The position numbers and the translations under genes were made by a program. Under the pieces are notes generated by a model. The model had not been told where the DNA came from. It saw only the letters and a list, made by a program, of their open reading frames with translations, and ran no database searches. From an uncultured Methanosarcinaceae archaeon (GTDB lineage Archaea; Halobacteriota; Methanosarcinia; Methanosarcinales; Methanosarcinaceae), in NCBI GenBank assembly GCA_963727895.1, contig CAVSHT010000011.1:160001-224000 (forward strand): a stretch of 64,000 bases of DNA. The letters are read 5' to 3'. Numbering within the stretch: position 1 is the stretch's first letter; every line of letters starts with the position of its first letter. Positions 597 to 34,025 of this stretch are shown one piece after another.

Positions 597-3500
597 GTTT
601 CAATCCTTGTTTTAGTGGATCTTGCTCACGAATCCTTCACTTTTTCCCATTGTCAACGGACTTTGTAGGTTTCAATCCTTGTTTTAGTGGATCTTGCTCA
701 CGAATTGTTAACGAAACTATCATGCACAAAATATACCCTGTATGTTTCAATCCTTGTTTTAGTGGATCTTGCTCACGAATATGTAAAAGGGCAGATAATA
801 TCCAGACTATACGTCCTCGTTTCAATCCTTGTTTTAGTGGATCTTGCTCACGAATTATAAGTTTGTGCGTTAGCTATTGAAATCAATGAAAGTTTCAATC
901 CTTGTTTTAGTGGATCTTGCTCACGAATCCAATCTTGTGAGGTTTAATTCCCACATATTGTAGGTGTTTCAATCCTTGTTTTAGTGGATCTTGCTCACGA
1001 ATACAAATTTTACATATTTTGTTTTGGAAGATTTTAAAGTTTCAATCCTTGTTTTAGTGGATCTTGCTCACGAATTAATATTAGGAGTTACGATCCCGTG
1101 TGCTGACAAGTGTTTCAATCCTTGTTTTAGTGGATCTTGCTCACGAATATTGCTACCCCTTACCAAAGGTCTAGCAAAAAATGTTTCAATCCTTGTTTTA
1201 GTGGATCTTGCTCACGAATAACTGCTAAACTTGCTATAGATGCTATTAGAAATGGTTTCAATCCTTGTTTTAGTGGATCTTGCTCACGAATAAATGAGAA
1301 GTTCGGTTCGGGCTTATATATTTTATAGTTTCAATCCTTGTTTTAGTGGATCTTGCTCACGAATCTACAAATCCCCAACTTGCGCAAGGGCTTCCAGATT
1401 TGTTTCAATCCTTGTTTTAGTGGATCTTGCTCACGAATCGTTTTTTGTTCAAAAGAGTTATCTAATTTATTTGTAGTTTCAATCCTTGTTTTAGTGGATC
1501 TTGCTCACGAATAGATGTTTGAAAAGTAGCTGTTTCCTTGTGGGATGTGTTTCAATCCTTGTTTTAGTGGATCTTGCTCACGAATACTTAGCCATCTGCT
1601 CTTGTGTTTTGCCCTCTGCAATGTTTCAATCCTTGTTTTAGTGGATCTTGCTCACGAATGGTGACGGTTTCGTTGAGGGATGATGGCACAGTCTGAGGTT
1701 TCAATCCTTGTTTTAGTGGATCTTGCTCACGAATTCCGAAATCACCATCTGGATCATCTACCCATACTTCAGTTTCAATCCTTGTTTTAGTGGATCTTGC
1801 TCACGAATTCCGAAATCACCATCTGGATCATCTACCCATACTTCAGTTTCAATCCTTGTTTTAGTGGATCTTGCTCACGAATTCCGAAATCACCATCTGG
1901 ATCATCTACCCATACTTCAGTTTCAATCCTTGTTTTAGTGGATCTTGCTCACGAATTAAGTAAATGAAATCATCAAATGGCATTCTAGAACTATGTTTCA
2001 ATCCTTGTTTTAGTGGATCTTGCTCACGAATATGCTAAAGAAATCATGGCAGTAATGCAGGTTTACGGGTTTCAATCCTTGTTTTAGTGGATCTTGCTCA
2101 CGAATGCTTCTACAATTATTCCCTCTTTGGTTCTATAGCGTTTCAATCCTTGTTTTAGTGGATCTTGCTCACGAATCAGTGCATAACCATAATTGTTTAC
2201 AAAAGTGTTATTGGTTTCAATCCTTGTTTTAGTGGATCTTGCTCACGAATAAAGAATATCCAGCCTCATGTAGCTATTACATGGAAGTAATGTTTCAATC
2301 CTTGTTTTAGTGGATCTTGCTCACGAATTGACGGCATGTTTTTTGTTGAGTTAACAGGATCTAAGTTTCAATCCTTGTTTTAGTGGATCTTGCTCACGAA
2401 TATATTCCGATGATTGGGGGGATACATGGTATTTGGGTTTCAATCCTTGTTTTAGTGGATCTTGCTCACGAATATATAATATTCAAAATTAAAAATTGTG
2501 ATATCTATATGTTTCAATCCTTGTTTTAGTGGATCTTGCTCACGAATAGTGAAATGTCCGAGGGTGGCAGCGAAATAGTTTAGTTTCAATCCTTGTTTTA
2601 GTGGATCTTGCTCACGAATTATAAAAAATACTTCAGGCGGTGTAGACATCTGTCCAATGTTTCAATCCTTGTTTTAGTGGATCTTGCTCACGAATTCAAC
2701 ATATAACAAAGATATTGTTGAGGCATTTGGGTAGTTTCAATCCTTGTTTTAGTGGATCTTGCTCACGAATGGATGTTAGCCAGAAACTTGCGGTCTCGTG
2801 GAATAAGTTTCAATCCTTGTTTTAGTGGATCTTGCTCACGAATGGATGTTAGCCAGAAACTTGCGGTCTCGTGGAATAAGTTTCAATCCTTGTTTTAGTG
2901 GATCTTGCTCACGAATCATTGAATGGACATGAATCTCAGAAGGGGTATTGGTTTCAATCCTTGTTTTAGTGGATCTTGCTCACGAATACATGCACATCTA
3001 GGATACAAACAATCCGTACACAACTGTTTCAATCCTTGTTTTAGTGGATCTTGCTCACGAATATCATCCCAATCCAGTTCCCAATTTCAGTTTTGTTTCA
3101 ATCCTTGTTTTAGTGGATCTTGCTCACGAATAATATGCTCCATAATACAATATTCTTTTAATCATGTGTTTCAATCCTTGTTTTAGTGGATCTTGCTCAC
3201 GAATAAAAAGGGTATGCGTTTACCTTTCTGGAAACCCGATGTGTTTCAATCCTTGTTTTAGTGGATCTTGCTCACGAATATGCAAGAGCCACCTAGGATT
3301 AATTGATAAGTTGGTTTCAATCCTTGTTTTAGTGGATCTTGCTCACGAATAGGTGCCCTTGCTATTACCGCGATGGGCTTTTTTATGTTTCAATCCTTGT
3401 TTTAGTGGATCTTGCTCACGAATGATTATTCATGGACTTCTGAAGGAGTTGATAAATTTGAGTTTCAATCCTTGTTTTAGTGGATCTTGCTCACGAATTC

Positions 3501-6500
3501 TGCGAGTACCCATTGCCCTAGAATATATCTTTTGGTTTCAATCCTTGTTTTAGTGGATCTTGCTCACGAATCGCAAAAAGATAGGAGATTAACGACTATG
3601 CAGAGAAGTTTCAATCCTTGTTTTAGTGGATCTTGCTCACGAATCAAAATAAGAAAAGACACTGTAATTGTAGAAATGAGGTTTCAATCCTTGTTTTAGT
3701 GGATCTTGCTCACGAATTAATTGAAAGCGAAAACTATACCATTTCAATCCAAGAGTTTCAATCCTTGTTTTAGTGGATCTTGCTCACGAATCTCTCCTTT
3801 AAGAAATTCCGGCATAACATTTTTTACATAAAACTGTTTCAATCCTTGTTTTAGTGGATCTTGCTCACGAATAAGTCTGTTAATTATTGTTTCAAGTGTC
3901 ATTTGTTGTTTCAATCCTTGTTTTAGTGGATCTTGCTCACGAATGTTACTGGGTTTGTTGCATTTGAGGTTGGCTGTAGGTGTTTCAATCCTTGTTTTAG
4001 TGGATCTTGCTCACGAATTCTATTAGGATACTCTCATTCATATGCAATAGAGCGAGACATGTTTCAATCCTTGTTTTAGTGGATCTTGCTCACGAATCAA
4101 TCGTTCCAAACATCATACAATATTGTAAAACAAAGTTTCAATCCTTGTTTTAGTGGATCTTGCTCACGAATCAGATTATAGTTTTTGAATCAGAGGGAAG
4201 TATATTGTTTCAATCCTTGTTTTAGTGGATCTTGCTCACGAATACATAGAACCATATTGGTTTTGCGTTCCGATAACTGGTTTCAATCCTTGTTTTAGTG
4301 GATCTTGCTCACGAATTTGTATACATTTGTATTTGTGTGTAACAGAACGGTGCAGTTTCAATCCTTGTTTTAGTGGATCTTGCTCACGAATCTTTGCTCG
4401 TTCTTCTAGTCTACCCTTTAGTTCTGAGTTTCAATCCTTGTTTTAGTGGATCTTGCTCACGAATAATATCAAGGTTCCTGGAAAGAAGGTCCACTTCCAA
4501 TGTTTCAATCCTTGTTTTAGTGGATCTTGCTCACGAATAATTAAAGCGTTTATGTATCTGGCTCCGTTGATTGATAGTTTCAATCCTTGTTTTAGTGGAT
4601 CTTGCTCACGAATGCAGAAAATTATTTGATGAACAAAAATATCCTGGGTTTCAATCCTTGTTTTAGTGGATCTTGCTCACGAATTGTTTATCAGGTCACA
4701 AAAGAAGAGTGTATGACGTTAGTTTCAATCCTTGTTTTAGTGGATCTTGCTCACGAATGTAAATTAGGAGGAAAACAAAAGATGGAAACTTTAAGTTTCA
4801 ATCCTTGTTTTAGTGGATCTTGCTCACGAATGTTGCGTCGTAATCTCCGGCTGCAATGCCATAACCGTTTCAATCCTTGTTTTAGTGGATCTTGCTCACG
4901 AATAATAAGTCCAGTCGTCCTATTCCAATAACATCTTCTGTTTCAATCCTTGTTTTAGTGGATCTTGCTCACGAATCAGGCTTCAGCATGTGGGGTATCG
5001 TTCCATTCGGGGTTTCAATCCTTGTTTTAGTGGATCTTGCTCACGAATAAGTAATTATTATGCATCTAGATATGGAGTGAAAGTCGTTTCAATCCTTGTT
5101 TTAGTGGATCTTGCTCACGAATCCAATGACGACGATTTACCCACATTGATGTTAAAACTATGTTTCAATCCTTGTTTTAGTGGATCTTGCTCACGAATAA
5201 TAGAACCTGAATGTATTCAGGAATACCAACATCGGAAGTTTCAATCCTTGTTTTAGTGGATCTTGCTCACGAATAAGATGAAAAATTGAGACCGACTTCG
5301 AATGCATTGTTTCAATCCTTGTTTTAGTGGATCTTGCTCACGAATAACATGTGCTGATACCTCATCGGGGTCATCCATCTCAAGTTTCAATCCTTGTTTT
5401 AGTGGATCTTGCTCACGAATGCTCATATGAAATTGAGACAAAACGCAGAGGTTGGTTTCAATCCTTGTTTTAGTGGATCTTGCTCACGAATTGCACATTT
5501 ACCCTGTATGGGAGTTATAATTCTAATTGTTTCAATCCTTGTTTTAGTGGATCTTGCTCACGAATTCATGCATTGTGGCTAGAAAACGCAAAAGAAGCAA
5601 GTTTCAATCCTTGTTTTAGTGGATCTTGCTCACGAATTAGCTCAAAAAATCACAAAACGTTGTCCTTCTTGTAAGTTTCAATCCTTGTTTTAGTGGATCT
5701 TGCTCACGAATACTTCAATTTTCATTTTCAACATCTCCTTTCCTGTTTCAATCCTTGTTTTAGTGGATCTTGCTCACGAATTAGGTGCCCTTGCTATTAC
5801 CGCGATGGGCTTTTTTATGTTTCAATCCTTGTTTTAGTGGATCTTGCTCACGAATATTATCTTCAAAATTCGCTCGAAATGAAATTCCTAGTTTCAATCC
5901 TTGTTTTAGTGGATCTTGCTCACGAATACACTTTTTCAATGCTATTAATATTTCCTCATCTGGTTTCAATCCTTGTTTTAGTGGATCTTGCTCACGAATT
6001 AAGTAAATGAAATCATCAAATGGCATTCTAGAACTATGTTTCAATCCTTGTTTTAGTGGATCTTGCTCACGAATTATCATATTGGCGTTTGAATAGTTTC
6101 CAATGCAGATGTTTCAATCCTTGTTTTAGTGGATCTTGCTCACGAATCAGGATTCTAGTTTAAGATACAGATCTGCGGCGGTTGGGGTTTCAATCCTTGT
6201 TTTAGTGGATCTTGCTCACGAATTTCTATTTTCTATAATCCGTATTATAGTTTCTAGTTTCAATCCTTGTTTTAGTGGATCTTGCTCACGAATAGATGCA
6301 TATAACTCCTTATGTTTCGGTGGATCTTTTGTTTCAATCCTTGTTTTAGTGGATCTTGCTCACGAATACTTTGTCCTCTTTTAATAGTACCATCACTATC
6401 CATGTTTCAATCCTTGTTTTAGTGGATCTTGCTCACGAATAAGATTTCAAGCGGAAGGAATAAGAAACGATTGTAGTTTCAATCCTTGTTTTAGTGGATC

Positions 6501-9500
6501 TTGCTCACGAATTTGAAGTATTTAATACGTATAGACAGTCTCTAATTGCGTTTCAATCCTTGTTTTAGTGGATCTTGCTCACGAATGGATCTTGGACGTT
6601 TAAGACTGCTACCGTAAAATCTTAGTTTCAATCCTTGTTTTAGTGGATCTTGCTCACGAATATGTCCGCATTAGGAGATAATAGACTCAATCAGTCTAAG
6701 TTTCAATCCTTGTTTTAGTGGATCTTGCTCACGAATTAGGATCCTTCAGAACGAAGGTGTTAATGCAACAATGTTTCAATCCTTGTTTTAGTGGATCTTG
6801 CTCACGAATTATTTTAGTACCTTTAAACAAATCTCTAATTGATTTGTGTTTCAATCCTTGTTTTAGTGGATCTTGCTCACGAATTGTGAGCGTTTTTTTC
6901 AAATTCAGGGACTGAGTAGGTTTCAATCCTTGTTTTAGTGGATCTTGCTCACGAATACAAACACCCTAATTGCTGTTATTGATACTTATAAACTGTTTCA
7001 ATCCTTGTTTTAGTGGATCTTGCTCACGAATCGAAGTTAAAAGAATTGATGAAGAAATATCCCGAAATCGGTTTCAATCCTTGTTTTAGTGGATCTTGCT
7101 CACGAATCATGATGTGTGGAATGTTGACCCTTGACAGTGCAAGTTCGTTTCAATCCTTGTTTTAGTGGATCTTGCTCACGAATCAATTACTCTGTTTCCA
7201 GCTCCAGTATTACTCACCGCGGTTTCAATCCTTGTTTTAGTGGATCTTGCTCACGAATCCAGCAGCGTACAGTGTCATAGATGATGCCTGCAAGAGTTTC
7301 AATCCTTGTTTTAGTGGATCTTGCTCACGAATACGTATGAGTTGGATATTGACACGCAAACCTAGGTTTCAATCCTTGTTTTAGTGGATCTTGCTCACGA
7401 ATTTATTAGAAAAATCCATTAACTCTTCAAAGCTCAAGGTTTCAATCCTTGTTTTAGTGGATCTTGCTCACGAATCTCTTTTGTAGTCGAAATGAGCTTA
7501 CCATATGCATTAGGTTTCAATCCTTGTTTTAGTGGATCTTGCTCACGAATGATTGGACTGGGACAGCAGCAGGAACTATTTGGGTGTTTCAATCCTTGTT
7601 TTAGTGGATCTTGCTCACGAATTGAATACGGTACTTTCAACATTCAGTATGCTCTGTCGTTTCAATCCTTGTTTTAGTGGATCTTGCTCACGAATCCAAT
7701 GTAACTTTATATTTGATTTAGAGAGATTATGTTTCAATCCTTGTTTTAGTGGATCTTGCTCACGAATCCAGCAGCGTACAGTGTCATAGATGATGCCTGC
7801 AAGAGTTTCAATCCTTGTTTTAGTGGATCTTGCTCACGAATAGGACGAACGAAAATTAATGAAAGATATTGAAATGTTTCAATCCTTGTTTTAGTGGATC
7901 TTGCTCACGAATGAAGCCGATGGGTTAGAAGAAACTATTCAAAAAAGTTTCAATCCTTGTTTTAGTGGATCTTGCTCACGAATTATTAGAAGAATGTTTA
8001 GGATCAACCTGTTGAAATATGTTTCAATCCTTGTTTTAGTGGATCTTGCTCACGAATATGAAAGTACAGGAGCGAGGTCTACACTTCGCAGGAGTTTCAA
8101 TCCTTGTTTTAGTGGATCTTGCTCACGAATTATCAACGATATGTTGAACTTCTGGAACAATCTTGTTTCAATCCTTGTTTTAGTGGATCTTGCTCACGAA
8201 TTTTGTTGGCAGCAAATGATAGCGCGTCGTCAATTGGTTTCAATCCTTGTTTTAGTGGATCTTGCTCACGAATGAATCAAATCAGAATTTGAGTCTCTTG
8301 TTAAATTTGAAGTTTCAATCCTTGTTTTAGTGGATCTTGCTCACGAATATTTCTTGCTATATACTACAATAACACTAATAGTGTTTCAATCCTTGTTTTA
8401 GTGGATCTTGCTCACGAATTCCGTACTCCGTGGTAAAACGGATGCTGAGTTAGTGTTTCAATCCTTGTTTTAGTGGATCTTGCTCACGAATTCCAATGGA
8501 ACGATGACGTTTTAAAAGAAATCCCTGATGTTTCAATCCTTGTTTTAGTGGATCTTGCTCACGAATTTTTTGATAAGCCTCTTGAATTCAAAGAATGGTT
8601 TGAATATCGTTTCAATCCTTGTTTTAGTGGATCTTGCTCACGAATAGACATTTACAGCCTCCTTAGATCCCTGATGCAGCGGTTTCAATCCTTGTTTTAG
8701 TGGATCTTGCTCACGAATTTAAAACATGGAATTAACTCTCAACGATAATGTAACGTGTTTCAATCCTTGTTTTAGTGGATCTTGCTCACGAATCAGGATA
8801 CCCGTTGCTTTAGCTGCGGGAGGAATGCGGTTTCAATCCTTGTTTTAGTGGATCTTGCTCACGAATACTCTAAAATAGAAGATATCAAAGCCATGAATGA
8901 GTTTCAATCCTTGTTTTAGTGGATCTTGCTCACGAATCTTAGATCCGTGATTGATATATTGGTTGTAGGAGTAGTTTCAATCCTTGTTTTAGTGGATCTT
9001 GCTCACGAATAAGACACAAGCTGAATTATGGAATCAGAGGGCATTGTGTTTCAATCCTTGTTTTAGTGGATCTTGCTCACGAATTTCACTGGACTTGAGG
9101 GAATTGACGACAAGGGACATAGTTTCAATCCTTGTTTTAGTGGATCTTGCTCACGAATTTGTATTTAGATTGCGTAGGATTTTGAAGGTGAAGTTTCAAT
9201 CCTTGTTTTAGTGGATCTTGCTCACGAATTGGATACCTCAAGTATTAGTACAGAAGGGGAATCTGGTTTCAATCCTTGTTTTAGTGGATCTTGCTCACGA
9301 ATTTGCGGCTTTAACAATTGAAATTATCCCATTGATAGGTTTCAATCCTTGTTTTAGTGGATCTTGCTCACGAATCTCTCAAAATTGAAACAATTGTGTT
9401 TAGAATTTGATTGTTTCAATCCTTGTTTTAGTGGATCTTGCTCACGAATCCGGTTCAATCCCGGATGACCAGACCTATAGTTACTGTTTCAATCCTTGTT

Positions 9501-9522
9501 TTAGTGGATCTTGCTCACGAAT
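597..9522 (-). CRISPR. CRISPR array with repeat B (crRNA sense ATTCGTGAGCAAGATCCACTAAAACAAGGATTGAAAC), about 122 repeats
   Basis: The 37-bp GTTTCAATCCTTGTTTTAGTGGATCTTGCTCACGAAT recurs about every 73 bp from 597 to 9486-9522 (manual count ~122). Spacers are mostly 33-40 nt. Leader and cas genes lie on the right side. Confidence 0.99.
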
Positions 9523-18350: not shown

Positions 18351-18773
18351 AGAAATTACACCCTCTTAAAATAGTGAAATAGGTCCTATGTTTAATTTAG
18401 CGCACTTGTGTATCTTTGAAATATAGTCCATTATATACAAGTCATAAAATTGGATAGTTAACATATTTTATATATATTCCTAAAATTAATTATAAAAATA
18501 AATAAATTAATCAAAAACTCAAGTAGATCTGTTATTGTGACATATTTAATAAAAATAAACAATTGAGTAACTATAAGTTCAAATTTGCTTTGATTTATAC
18601 AAGAGATTCATTTAATTATGTCGTTATCTACTTGACTAGGATTTTCCCTTCAAAAATTATACTGCTGTCAGAGGAAGAGGCACCTGAAAAAAGGTTCAGT
18701 CTGAGGAAATGATCGAAAAAACATTTTACGATTATATAAAGAGGTCCTCTCGTAGTAGATGAAGATAAATTCA

Positions 18774-18895
18774 GATAGGACTTACGCGATTGAACTGAAA
18801 AATCAATAGCATTAAACCTATAACTGTCTAAAACGTATTTTTAACTATAACGTCTATTGTGCTTGATTTTAGATTTCAACTGTGTAAGTCCTATC
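18774..18895. mobile_element. MITE-like element with imperfect ~35-bp terminal inverted repeats
   Basis: GATAGGACTTACGCGATTGAACTGAAAAATCAA on the left and TTGATTTTAGATTTCAACTGTGTAAGTCCTATC on the right, with a non-coding interior. Confidence 0.55.
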
Positions 18896-19240
18896 AGATT
18901 TGATACTTTCATAATTCTCATTGAGGAATGGCTTAGAAAAAAGTTAAGGGTTAGGTTAGTGGTGGAGTGTATGAGGTAGATGAATAGGAGGAAATATGGG
19001 ATGAGGAATTTTAGCGAAGTACTGAGCGTATATATGTCAGCAGAGCCATATAAGCAAAAATATCATTTTGATGTTTATGACCGACTTCCCCTAGTAAAGG
19101 ACGAAAACTTTCAAACACTTTCTTTTCGAAATTTAGCTGTTACTGATTACCATTATATTTTGGAAATATATTTTATTTATTGTCCTTTTGGCTTTCAAAG
19201 TGGGACAAACAAATTTATTTAGCCCAATGTCTCTAAAGAT

Positions 19241-19255
19241 CGAAAGGTTTAAATA
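19241..19255 (+). promoter_or_regulatory. Archaeal BRE/TATA promoter of the small three-gene operon
   Basis: CGAAAGG-TTTAAATA about 50 nt upstream of ATG 19306; GGAG ribosome-binding site before the ATG. Confidence 0.6.
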
Positions 19256-19305
19256 TTTTGACGGCGTATATACTGTTAGTAATCGAAGATTCGGAGTTTT
19301 AAAAA

Positions 19306-19461
19306 ATGCTTAAAAAAGTTTTAAAATTAAATAGGGACGGCAGTATTGGTATTGGCGTTCCAGCAAAATTAGCAAGAGAACTTGCTCTAACTAGCGAAAG
19401 TTGCGTCAATATTGAAAAAGTCGGAAACAGTTTACATATTACTAAAATAAAAATTGATTAA
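19306..19461 (+). CDS. AbrB/MazE/SpoVT-like small DNA-binding protein (51 aa, not in the ORF track)
   Basis: MLKKVLKLNRDGSIGIGVPAKLARELALTSESCVNIEKVGNSLHITKIKID* matches the swapped-hairpin pattern (K-x-GS-x-x-IP..A..L.L..G..V.I...G..L.I). Confidence 0.75.
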   Translation: MLKKVLKLNRDGSIGIGVPAKLARELALTSESCVNIEKVGNSLHITKIKID

Positions 19462-19471
19462 GGCGATTAAA

Positions 19472-19780
19472 ATGACAACTACAAAAACGAAACTATTACA
19501 GACAGTTAGAAAACACTGTTTAAACTGCTGCGGCGGTTCATACCTCGATGTGGAAAACTGTGCAGCGGGTTCAAATGCTGAAACTTACTCGCAATGTGCA
19601 CTATGGCCGTTTCGATTAGGTAAAGATCCTGAGGAACCCTCAGTTGCTATGAGGGAAAAGGGACGAAAAATTTCCGAAAAACAAAAAGTTTTGAAGCAAG
19701 TACCCACAGGAAATAAAATCGCCAAAATTAGAGCAACAAGTCAGCGTCATGACATGGCTGAAAAAGTGTTTCTAGAGTAA
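19472..19780 (+). CDS. Cys-rich putative zinc-binding protein of mobile-element type
   Basis: VRKHCLNCCGGS..DVENC...QCALWPFRLGKDP motif followed by a basic tail; likely ATG at 19472. Confidence 0.7.
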   Translation: MTTTKTKLLQTVRKHCLNCCGGSYLDVENCAAGSNAETYSQCALWPFRLGKDPEEPSVAMREKGRKISEKQKVLKQVPTGNKIAKIRATSQRHDMAEKVFLE

Positions 19781-19818
19781 ACTCACAACTTATAACATAA
19801 TTTGACAGGGGATTAAAA

Positions 19819-20154
19819 GTGGAGTACCCAAAAAAGCTTATCTCACAGACGGAAGTTAAAAAAAGAGGGTGGACTGTTGAAATAATGAAGGAGCTTGGTT
19901 TAGAGTGCACAACTTTTGTCACAAACAGGCACAGACCAGACAGACCTGTAAAATTATTCTCAATTGAAGAAGTCACCAGCCTTGAAAAAACCGAGCAGTT
20001 CAAAAAAGCTTTTGAGCTGAACGAGGAAAAGAAAAAAGAGCGTCGTGCAAAGTCGGAAAAGAGCAAAGAGAAAAAGGCTGCACAATTGCAGAAACAGTGG
20101 GAAAAACTCAGGGTTAAACTTAGTACAGAAGGGCACATCCTTTTTCATGGATGA
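19819..20154 (+). CDS. Hypothetical basic protein
   Basis: 111-aa ORF in the operon, with KKRGWT...VKLFSIEEV and a Lys/Glu-rich helix. Confidence 0.6.
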   Translation: MEYPKKLISQTEVKKRGWTVEIMKELGLECTTFVTNRHRPDRPVKLFSIEEVTSLEKTEQFKKAFELNEEKKKERRAKSEKSKEKKAAQLQKQWEKLRVKLSTEGHILFHG

Positions 20155-20245
20155 GACAAAGTGTTGAAATTCAGCTGTCCTCCAAACTGTTATTTGATTA
20201 ACTCCTGCTTGCTTTGCAATTTTTTCACTTGTCTTTACCAAGTTA

Positions 20246-21574
20246 TCATTTTGATAACTTGGAGAATTTGTTCTTTCCCACCCACCATGAGCTTTCTTTT
20301 CTGATTTTTGCTTGTTCTGCAGCTGTTCTTGCTTTTTCTTCTGCTACTTTACGGGCATGTTCTATTAGCTCTAAACGCATTTCTTCTTCTTCTATGCGTT
20401 CTTTTTCAAGACGTGCTTTTTCAAGTTTTTCTTTTTCTTCTCGTTCTTTTTTTAGCCTTTCGCGTTCTGAGGCTAAGTTTTTTTCACGATTGAGCCTTGC
20501 TTCTTCTTCAAGCTGCTTTCTTTTTGCTTCCAGTTCTTCCATTCGCTTGGCAGTGTCTTCACGTTCAGTTTTTATTATTGCAGACTCAATGTCGTCTTTA
20601 TCTTGGATTACTTTTTCCATTGCCCTGATTTGAAATTCTTTGTCATGCTTTGCAAGGGCTGTTAAGTCTTCTTGATGATAGTTAATTTTTCTTGCAAGAA
20701 TTGTAGCTCTTGATATACCTGTGTTGGCTGTAATAGTGTCTATTGCTTCTGTTAATTCTTCTGCATAACGTACTTGTCGAGCGCTGATATTCATTTGATC
20801 TGCGAGTTTTTCATCTGTTTTAATCGAGTGGCAATTTTTGCCACTCGATAGTTTATACTCCAAACCTCCCCAAGCTTTCTTTTCTACTTTATACCTTCTT
20901 CCTATCAAATCATTTCTTGTGATACTGTTTATGTTTCTGCGCGCAAGTTGATTGTCAATAATCCATGCATATGCTTCATCTCTTGAAGCAAAGTTCTGCT
21001 CAATAGTTGTAAATTCAACGTTGTGCTTTTGGCATATATGATAACGGTTATGCCCGTCGATAAGGGTATTATTCCAAATGACTATCGGAAAGGCGGGGTT
21101 GAAGCCGTTTTCTACTATATTTTTCTCTAATCCCTCGTACTCTTCCTGAGTCAATGGAGGACGTAACGCTTCAAACTCAACATCTATTTTAAGCTCGGTT
21201 GATGCACTCCTAAACTGACGTGTGGAAAATCTCACTTGTTGTATATTCAATAGTTTTGTGGTGCTGTGTGTAAATAGCCTAAAAAGAATCATGTTGTTTG
21301 ATTCGTCAGGATAGGCTCTAATATCTTGCACTCTCTTGAATACATCAGATGAGACTCTAATTACCTTGTTCACAGGAGTGAACATAGGAATTTCAATCTC
21401 TTTTTCATCTATAAGTAGTATGAATTTTCCAGAACTTTTGATAATAGAGTCATTTGGTTTGTACTCGTCTAACATTGATGCAACAGTTGAGGATATTGAC
21501 ACAGCATCACTTTTGCAACTCATTAACATTTGTAGTACTTCATTTGAAACTCTAATTGTTTTGTCTTTATTCAT
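20246..21574 (-). CDS. Tandem ribbon-helix-helix-like + ParB/Srx-like domain + HTH + coiled-coil protein
   Basis: KTIRVSNEV and KVIRVSSDV (RHH-like); PPLTQEEYEGLEKNI...PIVIWNNTLIDGHNRY (ParB-like); DEKLADQMNISARQVR (HTH). Likely start MNKDK at 21574 behind GAGGGA. Confidence 0.8.
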   Translation of the reverse strand: MNKDKTIRVSNEVLQMLMSCKSDAVSISSTVASMLDEYKPNDSIIKSSGKFILLIDEKEIEIPMFTPVNKVIRVSSDVFKRVQDIRAYPDESNNMILFRLFTHSTTKLLNIQQVRFSTRQFRSASTELKIDVEFEALRPPLTQEEYEGLEKNIVENGFNPAFPIVIWNNTLIDGHNRYHICQKHNVEFTTIEQNFASRDEAYAWIIDNQLARRNINSITRNDLIGRRYKVEKKAWGGLEYKLSSGKNCHSIKTDEKLADQMNISARQVRYAEELTEAIDTITANTGISRATILARKINYHQEDLTALAKHDKEFQIRAMEKVIQDKDDIESAIIKTEREDTAKRMEELEAKRKQLEEEARLNREKNLASERERLKKEREEKEKLEKARLEKERIEEEEMRLELIEHARKVAEEKARTAAEQAKIRKESSWWVGKNKFSKLSK

Positions 21575-21584
21575 ATGATCCCTC

Positions 21585-21688
21585 GTATACATATGTATAC
21601 AACACTAAGGATATAAATTTTTGTATACACATGTATACACCTAGAATGATTAAAAATGTGTACACATATGTATACATATAAATGTATA
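21585..21688. promoter_or_regulatory. Three GTATAC-based palindromic clusters flanking the TATA box of the RHH-ParB gene (putative operators)
   Basis: GTATACATATGTATAC (21585-21600), TGTATACACATGTATACA (21622-21639), TGTGTACACATATGTATACA (from 21657); minus-strand TTTATAT at 21611-21617. Confidence 0.55.
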
Positions 21689-21759
21689 GGCTCAAAAATG
21701 CGGTAAAAATTTCGCCATTTTGGCGGAGTTTTTGTCTATGTTTTGCCCACGTGGCCCAC

Positions 21760-22040
21760 ATTCTGACTTTTTGATCAGCTATTATATCTGCATTCTCAGA
21801 GGATCCCTCATTTTGAGGGATCCTATTTAGACTGTTTGCAGCAAATTGATTTGTCCCCCAAACATTCTTTGTTTCATTATACCACCTGCCAAGCAAATCA
21901 TTTCTTATGATATTGTTTATATTTCTCCTGCCAAGTTGGTTTTCTATGATCCACATCTTAGCTGCAGATCTTGAAGCAAAGTCCTGCTCGTAATCTTCCT
22001 GAGTCAGTGGCGGAATTAACTCTTCAAACTCTTGAATTTC
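21760..22040 (-). pseudogene. Internally deleted second copy of the ParB-like gene
   Basis: EFEELIPPLTQEDY joins directly to EQDFASRSAAKMWIIENQLGRRNINNIIRNDLLGRWY. It is homologous to the 20246-21574 protein but lacks the GHNR core. Confidence 0.7.
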
Positions 22041-22238
22041 TTTTTTTCGTTCTATTTCGTTTTGGCATATAACCTTCTAGAGAAACGAAAGATTTTTGGA
22101 GGAGCCTTTTAGTTAAATATATAGGGACTTGCGCGCGGGCGCTTTCTTCGTTTTGACCTTTTTAGTGGCAACTGATACGTGCTGTATTTTTATAATATTT
22201 CGTTTCAGGCATTTTTTGTTTCGTTTTATTTCGTTAGT

Positions 22239-22411
22239 CTAGACCGACCAGTCTATATAATGTCCAGTTTAGTGTACTAGACTGACTGGTCTAGATAGAC
22301 TGATCTACATAATACGTGACTAGCATACTAGACCAATTGATACAGGTAGACTTGTCTACATAACGCTTAGTTTAGTGTACTAGACCAACTGGTCTAGACC
22401 GATTGGTCTAG
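22239..22411. repeat. Tract of CTAGACC-N4-GGTCTAG palindromes with ~51-bp periodicity
   Basis: Copies at 22239, 22277, 22328 (degenerate), 22380 and 22394; direct repeat AGTTTAGTGTACTAGAC at 22266 and 22369. Confidence 0.8.
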
Positions 22412-22557
22412 GTGTTTGAAGTATATATTTAAAAATTAAAGTATATACTATGATAGTTTATATAATTTTATGGATAAAAAGACATATCGTTATATAGTTT
22501 GAAGAACATATATAGATATGTAAAGCATTTATGCAATGAAAAACGAAAAGCAGGACG

Positions 22558-22892
22558 TTAAAAACGGTATCGGTTTCTGCTCCGATACGCCCATACAAAA
22601 GGAGGCATTGGGCGATGCCTCCAACTCCCTTTATGCTAAATGCACGTTTACTCTTTGGCGTGCTCCAAAAATCACCTTGCAGGGTCTTTAAACATTCTCC
22701 CTGCAAAAAGCGAACAGTCAATCCATTCCCTTTTGTTGCCTCGGGCTGTTCGCAATATAATTATTATCAAGAACGGCAAGCCAAGATCCAACTACACAGC
22801 CTGTTTAGTCAGGCCACACGTCACCACTTCGGTGAGCCACTGTTGCAATGTTACCCACATATTTTTTGCGGCTGCCGTTCCTTAAAAACGGT
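22558..22892 (+). ncRNA. Candidate structured ncRNA or ssDNA element, about 330 nt
   Basis: Five consecutive hairpins plus a multibranch domain, with G-U wobbles valid only on the + strand. It has A-rich linkers, is GC-rich within AT-rich flanks and is followed by a T-tract. Confidence 0.6.
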
Positions 22893-23607
22893 TTCTCTTT
22901 TCTGTAAATAGTCCATTTTTAAAAACTAGATTATTTTAATATGGAGTTCCAATACTTAACAAGGCTTACTATATAATTGCTTTCTTTATTTCTTTTAAAT
23001 ATGTTAGTTTAAAAGAAGTCAGGTTTGATTATCTTCTATCATATAGGGGTCTCCCTTATGAAATATTCTAGAGTGAAAACGTGGTCAGTGCAAATTCTTA
23101 TTATGCAATTACCCAATAAGTGCTAGCAAAATTACTAACCGATGAATACTGTAAACTCCGATATCGGCTGTTTATATTATGGAATTTTAATCATACGTCT
23201 GATAAAGTATCCATTTTTAGAAGCAGACATTCACCTGCTCGAAAGAGAAACGGCTCTTTCTCATGTCAATCAGTTTATTCAGTAAATACTGTACTCAATT
23301 TAAGCTTTGTTATGATATTAATAGAAAAATCATTTTTTTAGTTTTTTACTGTATGAATTTGTATTAGTTATTTGCACTATTTTTATTATTTACTTTTTAT
23401 ATAGTACATAAATCCAAGAATTTAAGATTAGAACTTGAAGAAAAAGATTATCGTAAAAAAAGTCAAAATACGCTGTATATACACTTATACACATGGAAAA
23501 CAAGCAGTAAGGTATTAAATTGAAACTCTAATTTCAATTTTTTTTCATTAGCCAATTAATTCTCAAATTTTCTGAAATATATACCTATAGCTTACATAAC
23601 AATTAGA

Positions 23608-24347
23608 GAGTTTGGAAGTTAACTATAGTTATTTATTATGAGAACCTCTATTTCTTCATTAACTGCCCCAGATGCAATAGTTCCAGTCACAAAAAGAATG
23701 GTATAGTTGGTGGGCGTCAACGGTACAAATGCTCTGATTGTGGATATAACTATACAGTAGAGCTAAAATCAACTGCTTTTTCCGCTTTTGTAAAAAGACA
23801 GGCTTTACAACTCTATCTTGAAGGATTGGGCTTTCGCTCAATAGGAAGAGTTTTAGGGGTGAGTCATGTTTCTGTCCAAAGATGGATAAAGAAATTTGGT
23901 CAAGAGTGAGAGAACCTAAAAAGTGAAAGTGAGATATCTATTGTTGAAATGGATGAAATGCACACTTACATCGGTAACAAAAAAAATATTGCTGGATCTG
24001 GATTGCTGTTGATAGAGTTGGGAAAAAGTTCATCAACTGCTCTTTTGGTAGCAGAGGAACAGAAACTGGAAAACTACTCTGAAAAAAATTGAAGAAAAAA
24101 GAGATTGGAGAAGTGATGACCGATCACTGGAGGGCATATGCAGAGTTTCTTTCTGAAACGATTAATACTCAATCAAAAGCAGAAACGTATACTGTTGAAG
24201 GATATAACAGCATATTGAGGCACTTTTTGGCAAGATTGAGAAGAAAGACAAAGTGTTATATAAAAAGTCTTGAAATGCTAAAGTACTCGGTTATTCTATT
24301 AATGAAATACAGAAATAAAGAGCTAAATATATTTAGTTAACAATTAT
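23608..24347 (+). mobile_element. IS1-family element, degraded copy 1
   Basis: Near-identical to the copies at 28612 and 33286; carries nonsense changes (TGA near 23907 and 24080) and eroded TIRs. Confidence 0.9.
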
Positions 24348-28611: not shown

Positions 28612-29351
28612 GGTATTGTTAACTAAACATAGTTAACTCTTTCTTTCTGTATTTCATCAATAGAAGAACCGAGTACTTTAGCATTTCAAGACTCTTCGTA
28701 TAACACTTTGTCTTTCTTCTCAACCTTGCTAAAAAGTGCCTCAATATGCTGTTATATCCCTCAACTGTAAATGTTTCTGCTTTTGATTGAGTATGGATCT
28801 TTTCTGGAATAAACTCTGCATATGCCCTCCAGTGATCGGTCATCACTTCTCCAATCTCTTTTTTCTTCAATTTTTCCCAGAGTAGTTTTCCAGTTTCCGT
28901 TCCTCTGCTGCCAAAAGAGCAGTTGATGAACTTTTTCCCAACTCTATCAACAGCAATCCAGATCCAGCAATATTTTTTTTGTTACCGATGTAAGTGTGCA
29001 TCTCATCCATTTCAACAATAGATATCTCATTTTCACTTTTTAGGTTCTCTAACTCTTGACCAAATTTCTTGATCCATCTTTGGACAGAAACATGACTCAC
29101 CCCTAAAACTCTTCCTATTGAGCGAAAGCCCAATCCTTCAAGGTAAAGTTGTAAAGCCTGTCTTTTTACAAAAGCGGAAAAAGCAGTTGATTTTAGCTCT
29201 ACTGTATAGTTATAGCCACAATCAGAGCATTTGTACCGTTGACAACCACCAACTATACCGTTCTTTTTGTGACTGGAACTATTACATTTTGGGCAGTTCA
29301 TGAAGAAATATACTTTCTAATAGTATATAACTATGTTTAAGTATCAAAGCC
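28612..29351 (-). mobile_element. IS1-family element copy 2 (InsA 28867-29301 and InsB 28619-28870, A9 slippery site)
   Basis: CPKC...YKCSDC zinc finger, HTH, EMDEMH, TDHWRAY; imperfect ~23-bp TIRs; no matching target-site duplication. Confidence 0.93.
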
Positions 29352-33285: not shown

Positions 33286-34025
33286 GGCTTTGATAATTAA
33301 CTATAGTTATATACTATTAGAAAGTATATTTCTTCATTAACTGCCCCAGATGCAATAGTTCTAATCACAAAAAGAATGGTATAGTTGGCGGGCGTCAACG
33401 GTACAAATGCTCTGATTGTGGCTATAACTATACGGTAGAGCTAAAATCAACTGCTTTTTCCACTTATGTCAAAAGACAGGCTTTACAACTCTATCTTGAA
33501 GGATTGGGCTTTCGCTCAATAGGAAGAGTTTTAGGGGTAAGTCATGTTTCTGTCCAAAAATGGATCAAGAAATTTGGTCAAGAGTTAGAGAACCTAAAAA
33601 GTGAAAGTGAGATATCTATTGTTGAAATGGATGAGATGCACACTTACATCGGTAACAAAAAAAATATTGCTGGATCTGGATTGCTGTTGATAGAGTTGGG
33701 AAAAAGTTCATCAACTGCTCTTTTGGCAGCAGAGGAACAGAAACTGGAAAACTACTCTGGGAAAAAGTGAAGAAAAAAGACATTGGAGAAGTAATGACAG
33801 ATCACTGGAGGGAATATGCAGAGTTTCTTCCAGAAAAGAGTCATACTCAATCCAAAGCAGAAACATTTACAGTTGAGGGATATAACAGCATATTGAGGCA
33901 CTTTTTAGCAAGGTTGAGAAGAAAGACAAAGTGTTATACGAAGAGTCTTGAAATGCTAAAGTACTCGGTTATTCTATTGATGAAATACAGAAATAAAGAG
34001 TTAACTATGTTTAGATAACAATGCC
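33286..34025 (+). mobile_element. IS1-family element copy 3 with 8-bp target-site duplication AAATTTAA
   Basis: TIRs GGCTTTGATAATTAACTATAGTT and AACTATGTTTAGATAACAATGCC; AAATTTAA at 33278-33285 and 34026-34033; InsA start reads ATT. Confidence 0.93.

Follow-up and report, generated by a model that had tools for sequence, protein, structure and literature searches.

A chain of hairpins about 330 nucleotides (nt) in length lies on the plus strand at positions 22558–22892 of the window, i.e., the 64,000-nt stretch of contig CAVSHT010000011.1 (C11) analyzed here, from the genome of a methanogen of the Methanosarcinaceae. The element is a single-strand structure under selection on the plus strand and is carried subterminally, reading outward, by an integrated plasmid-like element. 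It is a candidate for a new family of structured RNA, or for a structure-conserved DNA signal, with a range of three copies in one genome. In the favored reading, for which the chances are about even, the interval 22538–22892 (+) is an independently transcribed non-coding gene for a structured RNA of ~350 nt that belongs to this mobile element.

The candidate feature, either a structured RNA or a folded plus strand of DNA, spans 22538–22892 (+), with a predicted 5′ end and a 3′ end within T-runs, and is defined by its fold and by compensatory changes among paralogues. Its 5′ domain (22558–22753, +), which is found in all three copies, comprises five consecutive hairpins on the plus strand: hp1 at 22567–22588 (arms 22567–22573/22582–22588), hp2 at 22601–22622 (arms 22601–22609/22614–22622), hp3 at 22642–22663 (arms 22642–22648/22657–22663), hp4 at 22677–22706 (arms 22677–22684/22699–22706), and hp5 at 22710–22753 (arms 22710–22719/22744–22753). 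The 3′ domain (22771–22880, +), present in the window copy and in one of the two others, is formed by a long-range stem (22771–22782/22870–22880) around the GCCTG/CAGGC, TCACC/GGTGA, and GTTGCAA/TTGCGGC hairpins. All of these stems except GTTGCAA/TTGCGGC had been picked out by an initial annotation made from the sequence alone; those named there are all recovered in the sequence and by RNAfold, in the minimum free energy and centroid structures alike. The element also forms the GC-rich island in AT-rich DNA that was described there, with a GC content of 0.44–0.48 against 0.20–0.36 in the flanks.

The predicted fold of the plus strand has an energy of −100.8 kcal/mol, compared to −77.1 ± 5.0 kcal/mol for its shuffles (z = −4.71; 0 of 100 as good), with 100 dinucleotide shuffles per strand serving as controls. 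The minus strand reaches z = −2.12, and 3 of 100 shuffles are as good. The expectation of the initial annotation that the fold would beat shuffled sequences is therefore borne out with both strands checked. In a sliding 160-nt scan, windows within the element have z values of −2.3 to −4.3 on the plus strand.

Two minor features of the window copy concern its ends and its long stem. An 11-nt direct repeat, TTAAAAACGGT, flanks the element at 22558–22568 and 22882–22892 and occurs in the window copy only. AACGG is present three times and CCGTT once, so that other pairings involving the long stem could form, one of them a 5-bp hairpin ahead of the final T-run.

The genome (G000; 19 contigs) harbors three diverged paralogues of the element, the first being the window copy on C11. 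The copy on contig C9 (155835–156145, −) is 83% identical over the 3′ half. The copy on contig C8 (~251865–252075, −) corresponds only to the 5′ half, in which it shares 77% identity with the C9 copy; it has hairpins 1–5 followed by a T6 run, without the 3′ domain. Conservation of the pairing in homologues, on which the initial annotation had staked its proposal, is found in these paralogues. Covariation was counted in a three-way alignment of the 5′ domain over four helices, hp2–hp5, with 29 consensus pairs. Across the three copies, 98.8% of the 80 stem cells pair, and 7 of the 29 pairs have changed on both sides, a count that is reached by 1 of 500 shuffles. Slid controls yield 0–1 two-sided pairs and 39–49% pairing. 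One hp4 pair forms an A-U, G-U, G-C series across the three copies, and in C9 and C8 hp1 is found at the same position but with an unrelated sequence. The window and C9 copies have 90% column identity in the 3′ domain, where the two in-stem changes in C9 are both from A-U to G-U.

The structure is also strand-biased. The consensus pairs of all copies comprise 120 Watson–Crick cells, 9 G-T cells (a wobble on the plus strand), and 1 A-C cell (a wobble on the minus strand), in agreement with the initial remark that the wobbles work on the plus strand. The sense and antisense z values for the three copies are −4.71/−2.12, −2.01/−1.20, and −3.63/−2.72, the sense strand being better each time. Taken at the sequence level, these comparisons point to selection acting on the pairing of the plus strand.

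Membership of a known RNA family was judged with Rfam 15 on the basis of a covariance-model score at or above the gathering score of the family. The gathering scan of the whole window returns 130 matches, none of which lies within 22538–22892; they correspond to the CRISPR array, with 129 repeats, and one tRNA. E-value scans of the three copies give generic hairpin matches only (best E = 0.23, 21 bits versus a cut-off of 90), and ARAGORN finds 0 tRNA or tmRNA genes in 22000–23500. No match of the element to signal recognition particle RNA, RNase P RNA, tRNA, or an intron is obtained in these scans, as anticipated from the lack of their hallmark motifs.

A frame of 98 codons (22615–22911) is open across the element, and AAGGAGG, a Shine–Dalgarno (SD)-like string at 22599–22605, stands 9 nt ahead of its ATG at 22615. 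The frame is also open in C9, where a 3-nt insertion or deletion relative to the window preserves it. However, a small protein-coding gene is barely credible at this position. The SD–ATG pair is not present in the C9 or C8 copies, and the frame closes early in C8. The 18 substitutions between the window and C9 fall 3, 8, and 7 times at codon positions 1, 2, and 3, position 2 being the most altered, and the differing codons are mostly non-synonymous (10 versus 3 synonymous). The 98-amino-acid (aa) open reading frame (ORF) has no Pfam match and no relative except itself among 5.8 billion proteins. By codon comparison, the overlapping ORF is without coding constraint, in line with its initial dismissal as spurious.

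Promoter-like and terminator-like signals are found on either side of the structure. The AT-rich spacer that precedes it (22412–22537) contains a TATA-like box, ATATATAG, at 22508–22515 (+), and ATATATA is kept at the equivalent place in the C9 and C8 spacers. About 24 nt past the box, a distance interpreted by the archaeal promoter spacing rule, is the shared 5′ motif GAAAAACG (22538–22545), which also opens the C9 and C8 copies. At the other end, a T6 run internal to the 3′ domain (22862–22867, +) is conserved in C9, and a T-rich run (22892–22903, +) lies past the last stem. The C9 copy has T5 directly after the stem and the C8 copy has T6 after hp5. Oligo-T is a possible terminator for archaeal RNA polymerase, and the internal T6 could serve in this capacity. 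The upstream TATA-like sequence and the following T-tract of the initial annotation are thus both present.

Upstream of the spacer lies a cluster of 16-bp palindromes, TAGACC-N4-GGTCTA (22236–22411), with an operator- or centromere-like appearance. In 59 genomes of the genus, this pattern occurs at three loci only, all in G000, each ~130–150 nt upstream of a copy of the element. It is preceded by a conserved GGGACTYGCGCGCG block (22124–22137) and then CGTTT repeats (22149–22226), both recognized by sequence comparison of the copies. The order common to all three copies is a divergent gene, the GGGACTYGCGCGCG block, the CGTTT repeats, the palindrome cluster, a ~130-nt AT-rich spacer with ATATATA, the element, and T-runs. 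Three matches to the palindrome pattern in viral contigs were rejected as chance, as they lack a surrounding repeat cluster and lie in DNA (GC 0.41) that looks coding by eye.

The initial annotation had assigned the element to an adjacent ParB-like module. The association itself stands, with the same palindromes and a divergent gene in three of three copies and a ParB-like fold for the window gene. However, the element is not simply part of this module; it occupies a subterminal position, reading outward, in an integrated plasmid-like element that has att sites and an integrase of its own.

The boundaries of this carrier are given by synteny. Two relatives, G015 and G069, join C11:136,971 straight to C11:183,026 (window 23026), which delimits an insert of 46 kb. 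The element is not in the empty sites of these relatives and therefore belongs to the insert. The attR core, TTGATTATCTTCTATCATA (23025–23043), at the right end of the insert, repeats the attL core (C11:136,95x–136,971) directly but imperfectly over 19 bp, and the att core overlaps with the opening codons of a gene for a class I aminoacyl-tRNA synthetase. The long stem of the element ends 144 nt before the attR core. At the opposite end, the gene for a 362-aa tyrosine integrase (PF00589, 84–85 bits) has its ATG 52 nt inside the attL core and is followed by those for a Prim-Pol protein (PF09250, E = 1e-6) and a 589-aa protein. Next are ParB-like fragments, a Schlafen-like helicase, type III CRISPR–Cas genes, a reverse transcriptase, and Cas6b, and then the CRISPR array, type I-B genes, the ParB-like gene, the palindromes, and the element.

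Of the insert (C11:136,972–183,043), positions 1–23043 lie in the window; the insert includes a full type I-B cas operon, the 129-repeat array, RAMPs, and a Cas10 fragment. Either an integrative plasmid carries the CRISPR–Cas loci as cargo, or the insert has a composite origin. The array (window 597–9522) contains four pairs of identical spacers, and a comparison of its spacers with the islands gives no match.

The C9 copy has a similar setting. Relatives G001 and G004 join C9:155,740 straight to C9:180,792, which defines an insert of 25 kb with TTATGA at both junctions. The C9 copy reads outward, and 115 nt separate the end of its last stem from the left junction. The opposite end carries the C-terminal half of a tyrosine integrase (G000:C9:180203–180796), which begins exactly at the junction; a full 421-aa paralogue is encoded on C5, and its corresponding half shares 43% identity with the C9 half. 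Two further integrase fragments (C3:28307–28543 and C14:74198–74428) begin at the same profile position. Such fragments could mean that integrases are split by integration (SSV-type); no N-terminal halves were found for the C9, C3, and C14 fragments. The C8 copy adjoins a class III aminotransferase gene in its middle part and has no integrase nearby. All three copies read outward, and for the window copy and the C9 insert the carrier is an integrative element of the tyrosine-integrase type.

These islands are full of insertion sequence (IS) copies and gene fragments, low fold z values also occur in nearby DNA, and, the C9 integrase being truncated exactly at the junction, its missing half might once have lain at the end occupied by the element. 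It could be argued on these grounds that the element has no function and is a decaying gene remnant, a set of chance inverted repeats, or a group of attP accessory sites for the integrase. This explanation is highly improbable. Neutral decay does not yield seven two-sided compensatory changes together with 98.8% pairing, and attP arm sites, as protein-binding sites, would conserve sequence, whereas here each hairpin differs and the stems co-vary. An identity of the element with the missing N-terminal half of the C9 integrase was rejected, as it has no similarity to the full-length paralogue and a modeled circle junction has stops in all frames.

An independently transcribed RNA is favored because the spacing of ~24 nt between the TATA-like box and the shared 5′ motif is conserved, the structure is closed by T-runs in every copy, and G-U pairs are frequent. 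It is favored, further, because five serial hairpins plus a branched domain are typical of RNAs and because palindromes between two divergent promoters fit a ParB/KorB-like operator. In the proposed mechanism, a TATA-type promoter in the AT-rich spacer would start transcription, and the 16-bp palindromes would separate this promoter from that of the divergent ParB/KorB-like gene. Both promoters would be controlled by the ParB-like protein, probably through binding to the palindromes. The RNA would end in the oligo-T runs, ~130–145 nt before the attR core. Excision to a circle would bring the outward-reading gene to a position immediately upstream of attP, followed on the same strand by the integrase and Prim-Pol genes. 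The free RNA may act in maintenance of the mobile element (copy-number, replication, or gene control) and would not be a leader. We infer the transcription of the element, the ends of its RNA, the control by the ParB-like protein, and any function from the arrangement described above. Twenty sequencing runs contain 5–17% of the sampled words, two of them being RNA runs (7% and 5%); these small shares bear on transcription in neither direction.

A more specific proposal, which is speculative and rather unlikely, is that the element represents a new class of ~330-nt structured RNA belonging to the machinery by which archaeal integrative plasmids are replicated and maintained. It might, for example, be a primer or copy-control RNA at the palindrome/AT-rich region that works with a Prim-Pol replicase and is switched by the ParB/KorB-like protein. 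If true, RNA-controlled plasmid replication would have an archaeal counterpart, something that to our knowledge is undescribed in methanogens.

In C11 as well as in C9, the element occupies one end of the insert and the integrase gene the other, with both on the same strand, so that a circle would put them in series, ~215 nt apart in C11. It is conceivable, if improbable, that the hairpins are a cis-acting leader, such that transcripts of the circle would cross the hairpins and attP into the integrase, Prim-Pol, and helicase genes and attenuation would tie expression to the circular state. Joint-dependent expression of Tn916 and the junction promoters of IS circles are precedents for this type of control. 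However, T5–T6 runs close the element and more of them precede the att site. A separate TATA-like box stands 22 nt ahead of the integrase ATG, at leaderless spacing; therefore, the promoter of the element is not needed for integrase expression, and a free RNA is favored over a leader. In addition, the C9 integrase consists of the C-terminal half only and starts at the junction without a start codon, and C8 has no nearby integrase.

Several points weigh against an independently transcribed RNA gene. No homologue of the element was found outside G000 in any of the searches described below. The covariation counts rest on three related sequences from one genome, making them weak statistics that are indicative and do not amount to a formal test, and the support for the 3′ domain consists of two copies with two one-sided changes. 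Compensatory change and a plus-strand wobble bias are equally expected from a folded single DNA strand. The neighboring palindromic DNA has equally low z values in the 160-nt scan (about −3.9 to −4.4 at 22280–22440 and down to −5.1 at 21560–21880); therefore, fold energy alone fails to single out the element. At a GC content of 20–30%, DNA often contains TATA-like and T-rich strings, and the conserved T6 run (22862–22867) should end some transcripts before the long stem closes. Finally, antisense pairing of the element with the translation start regions of ParB-like genes is no better than for shuffles (19 to 95 of 200 as good), and no RNA target or partner was found.

The searches for relatives covered sequence and structure. 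No homologue of the element is detected by blastn in 60 relatives or in plasmids and phages, by an exact 20-mer in genome and viral contigs, or by an exact 17-mer in viral contigs. A covariance model of the 3′ domain finds none in the 58 other genomes of the genus, and its best E value among 84 foreign ParB-related metagenomic or viral loci is 0.79. A model of the 5′ domain gives no accepted match in the same 58 genomes or in 150 other genomes of the order; with filters off, its best E value at 18 ParB-like loci of the genus is 0.11. One match of the 5′ model in G035 (E = 0.037) was rejected, since it lies within a region that looks coding by eye and has no adjoining ParB-like gene. The island end recurs at the same site in the closest relative, G001, on a contig that begins 15 nt past where the element would end, and neither covariance model finds a copy in the G001 assembly. 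Among the 58 further genomes in the genus, 16 encode ParB-like relatives, with no similarly structured sequence upstream. Four GC-richer stretches upstream of ParB-like genes elsewhere were rejected as equivalents; their z values are −0.39, +1.56, −1.93, and +1.18, and at least some of them carry long open frames.

The layout of a GC-rich block, repeats, an AT-rich stretch, and hairpins would also fit an origin. The element may be a single-stranded DNA (ssDNA) signal of the replication origin of its carrier, a possibility with a chance well below even. Unwinding of the AT-rich DNA would expose the plus-strand hairpins, which would be recognized by the Prim-Pol of the mobile element or by a host primase. 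The window insert does encode a Prim-Pol (PF09250, E = 1e-6), followed by the 589-aa protein, although this gene and its neighbor are found only in the C11 island and are absent from the C9 and C8 islands, both of which carry the element. Folding with DNA parameters gives z = −4.20 on the plus strand and −3.52 on the minus strand, and the internal T6 is unproblematic for DNA; nonetheless, the nine G-T pairs are costlier in DNA than in RNA. The 16-bp palindromes bear a closer resemblance to an operator or centromere for the ParB-like protein than to direct-repeat iterons, and the element is flanked by promoter-like and terminator-like signals. Moreover, known signals consist of one or two hairpins of 40–100 nt, as opposed to eight helices over 330 nt.

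The closest parallels to such a signal are found in plasmids. An essential 100-nt origin stem-loop in pRN plasmids is reported to be conserved in structure and not in sequence (PMC4234260), and this is the pattern seen here. pRN1 is comparable in being an archaeal plasmid or integrative element with a replication protein of Prim-Pol type and a structure that is conserved where the sequence is not (PMC4234260). In contrast, pRN1 as described there has a single ~100-nt stem-loop downstream of the replication gene and no iterons. The element comprises eight helices over 330 nt beside palindromes and a ParB-like gene, has no sequence similarity to pRN1, and in two of its three copies is without a Prim-Pol gene.

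In RSF1010, iterons are bound by RepC, RepA unwinds the DNA, and the exposed stem-loops ssiA and ssiB are primed by RepB′ (PMC4234260; PMC8567376). Its oriV resembles the locus in the succession of repeats, AT-rich DNA, and strand-specific hairpins, and its primase and those of archaea fall within one broad fold class (PMC4234260; PMC8567376). However, ssiA and ssiB are two 40-nt inverted repeats on opposite strands, whereas the helices of the element all favor one strand. RSF1010 is bacterial and requires RepA, RepB′, and RepC, none of which was found here.

Among RNAs, three groups provide comparisons for an independently transcribed product. ColE1 RNA II/RNA I involves a long RNA with serial 5′ hairpins that is transcribed beside the plasmid origin; the element shares the serial 5′ hairpins beside an origin-like region of a plasmid, but the hosts of ColE1 are bacterial and that of the element is archaeal, and nothing here points to an antisense partner, RNase H processing, or a DNA–RNA hybrid site. 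GOLLD and ROOL are large structured RNAs (500–800 nt) of phages and plasmids, bacterial, widespread, and represented in Rfam. The element likewise has an elaborate fold borne by mobile DNA, but it is 330 nt long, has no Rfam match, and is confined to one genome. IS110 bridge RNA and the omega RNA of TnpB/IscB are guide RNAs encoded at transposon ends, to which the element is similar as a candidate structured RNA at the end of a mobile element that reads toward the junction. Here, however, a tyrosine integrase with classical att repeats is present, there is no copy-specific match between loops and junctions, and no IS110, TnpB, or IscB genes are found among the ORFs scanned in the islands. Similarly, no Pfam family of an HUH Rep or transposase, as would accompany a rolling-circle sso or hairpin ends of the IS200/IS605 type, is found among the ORFs scanned in the three islands.

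The linker between hp2 and hp3 (22623–22641), CTCCCTTTATGCTAAAT in the window and containing TTATGAA in C8, resembles a TTATGAA-like motif that lies at or near all three island junctions (window 23046–23066) and in the empty sites of relatives. As a guide-like match between this linker and the junctions, the resemblance is of doubtful significance, being not copy-specific and noticed post hoc.

Few non-coding RNAs are known from archaeal plasmids or integrative elements and almost none from those of methanogens. The element is a testable candidate with a clear predicted fold, three natural compensatory variants, and a defined place in a mapped mobile element. If it is an RNA, it would be a new family and a way into the control of copy number or gene expression in such elements. 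If it is an ssDNA signal, it would extend the pRN1 type of origin, with its structure-not-sequence conservation, to Methanosarcina and would help in building vectors. With a known range of one genome, its general importance is limited unless relatives are found.

The divergent gene of the window copy (20246–21592, −) is identified as ParB-like through homologues, alignment, and AlphaFold/Foldseek. Its ORF has 448 aa, with relatives beginning at about residue 132. The AlphaFold model is confident over residues ~132–440. In Foldseek searches, residues ~132–340 match pNOB8 ParB-N (5k5d, E = 5e-6), Spo0J (1vz0), Noc, ParB, and KorB, with E values of 5e-6 to 7e-3 and a probability of 0.99–1.0 across the first 29 ranks. 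From the modeled structure, the protein is predicted to contain a ParB N-terminal (ParB/Srx) domain together with a helix-turn-helix. NCBI lists one relative as a ParB N-terminal domain protein, and relatives are common in metagenomes, where they are often fused to DNA methyltransferases. The protein itself has no Pfam or NCBIfam match at E values up to 10, and 12 family members have none at E values up to 1. The locus does not look like a ParABS partition system, which would have a ParA ATPase beside ParB and parS; there is no ParA-type match among the ORFs scanned beside the three ParB-like genes, the small ORFs having been scanned only in part.

A duplicated fragment of the ParB-like gene, a 129-aa ORF beside the palindromes (21567–21956, −), was recognized by tblastn and a profile match at C11:181768–181989. 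AT-rich palindromic repeats of the TATACATATGTATA kind are found in and around this fragment (21560–21900), with z values down to −5.1 on the minus strand.

On the other side of the ParB-like gene, a block at 19077–20162 (+) is common to the C9 island with 76–77% DNA identity and contains small ORFs at 19306–19461, 19454–19780, and 19819–20154, two of which were tested and have no Pfam match. Among the small plus-strand ORFs of 19306–19780, which are conserved with the C9 island, one is AbrB/SpoVT-like by eye. Another is Cys-rich with a CxxCC...C...C..LWPFRLGK motif, which we take to be a motif of small proteins of mobile elements; the one of these ORFs that was tested has no Pfam match.

An IS1-like element of 734 bp lies at 23612–24345, with further copies at 28615–29340 and 33297–34022 and a PF03400 fragment at 24089–24340. 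It has 297 blastn matches in the 3.67-Mb genome, 203 of which are at least 700 nt long at ~90–95% identity, and is also present in many genomes of the genus. A shorter repeat of ~120–147 nt at 18754–18900 has 15 blastn matches in the genome, 11 of at least 100 nt; located between the cas operon and the island genes, it may resemble a miniature inverted-repeat transposable element.

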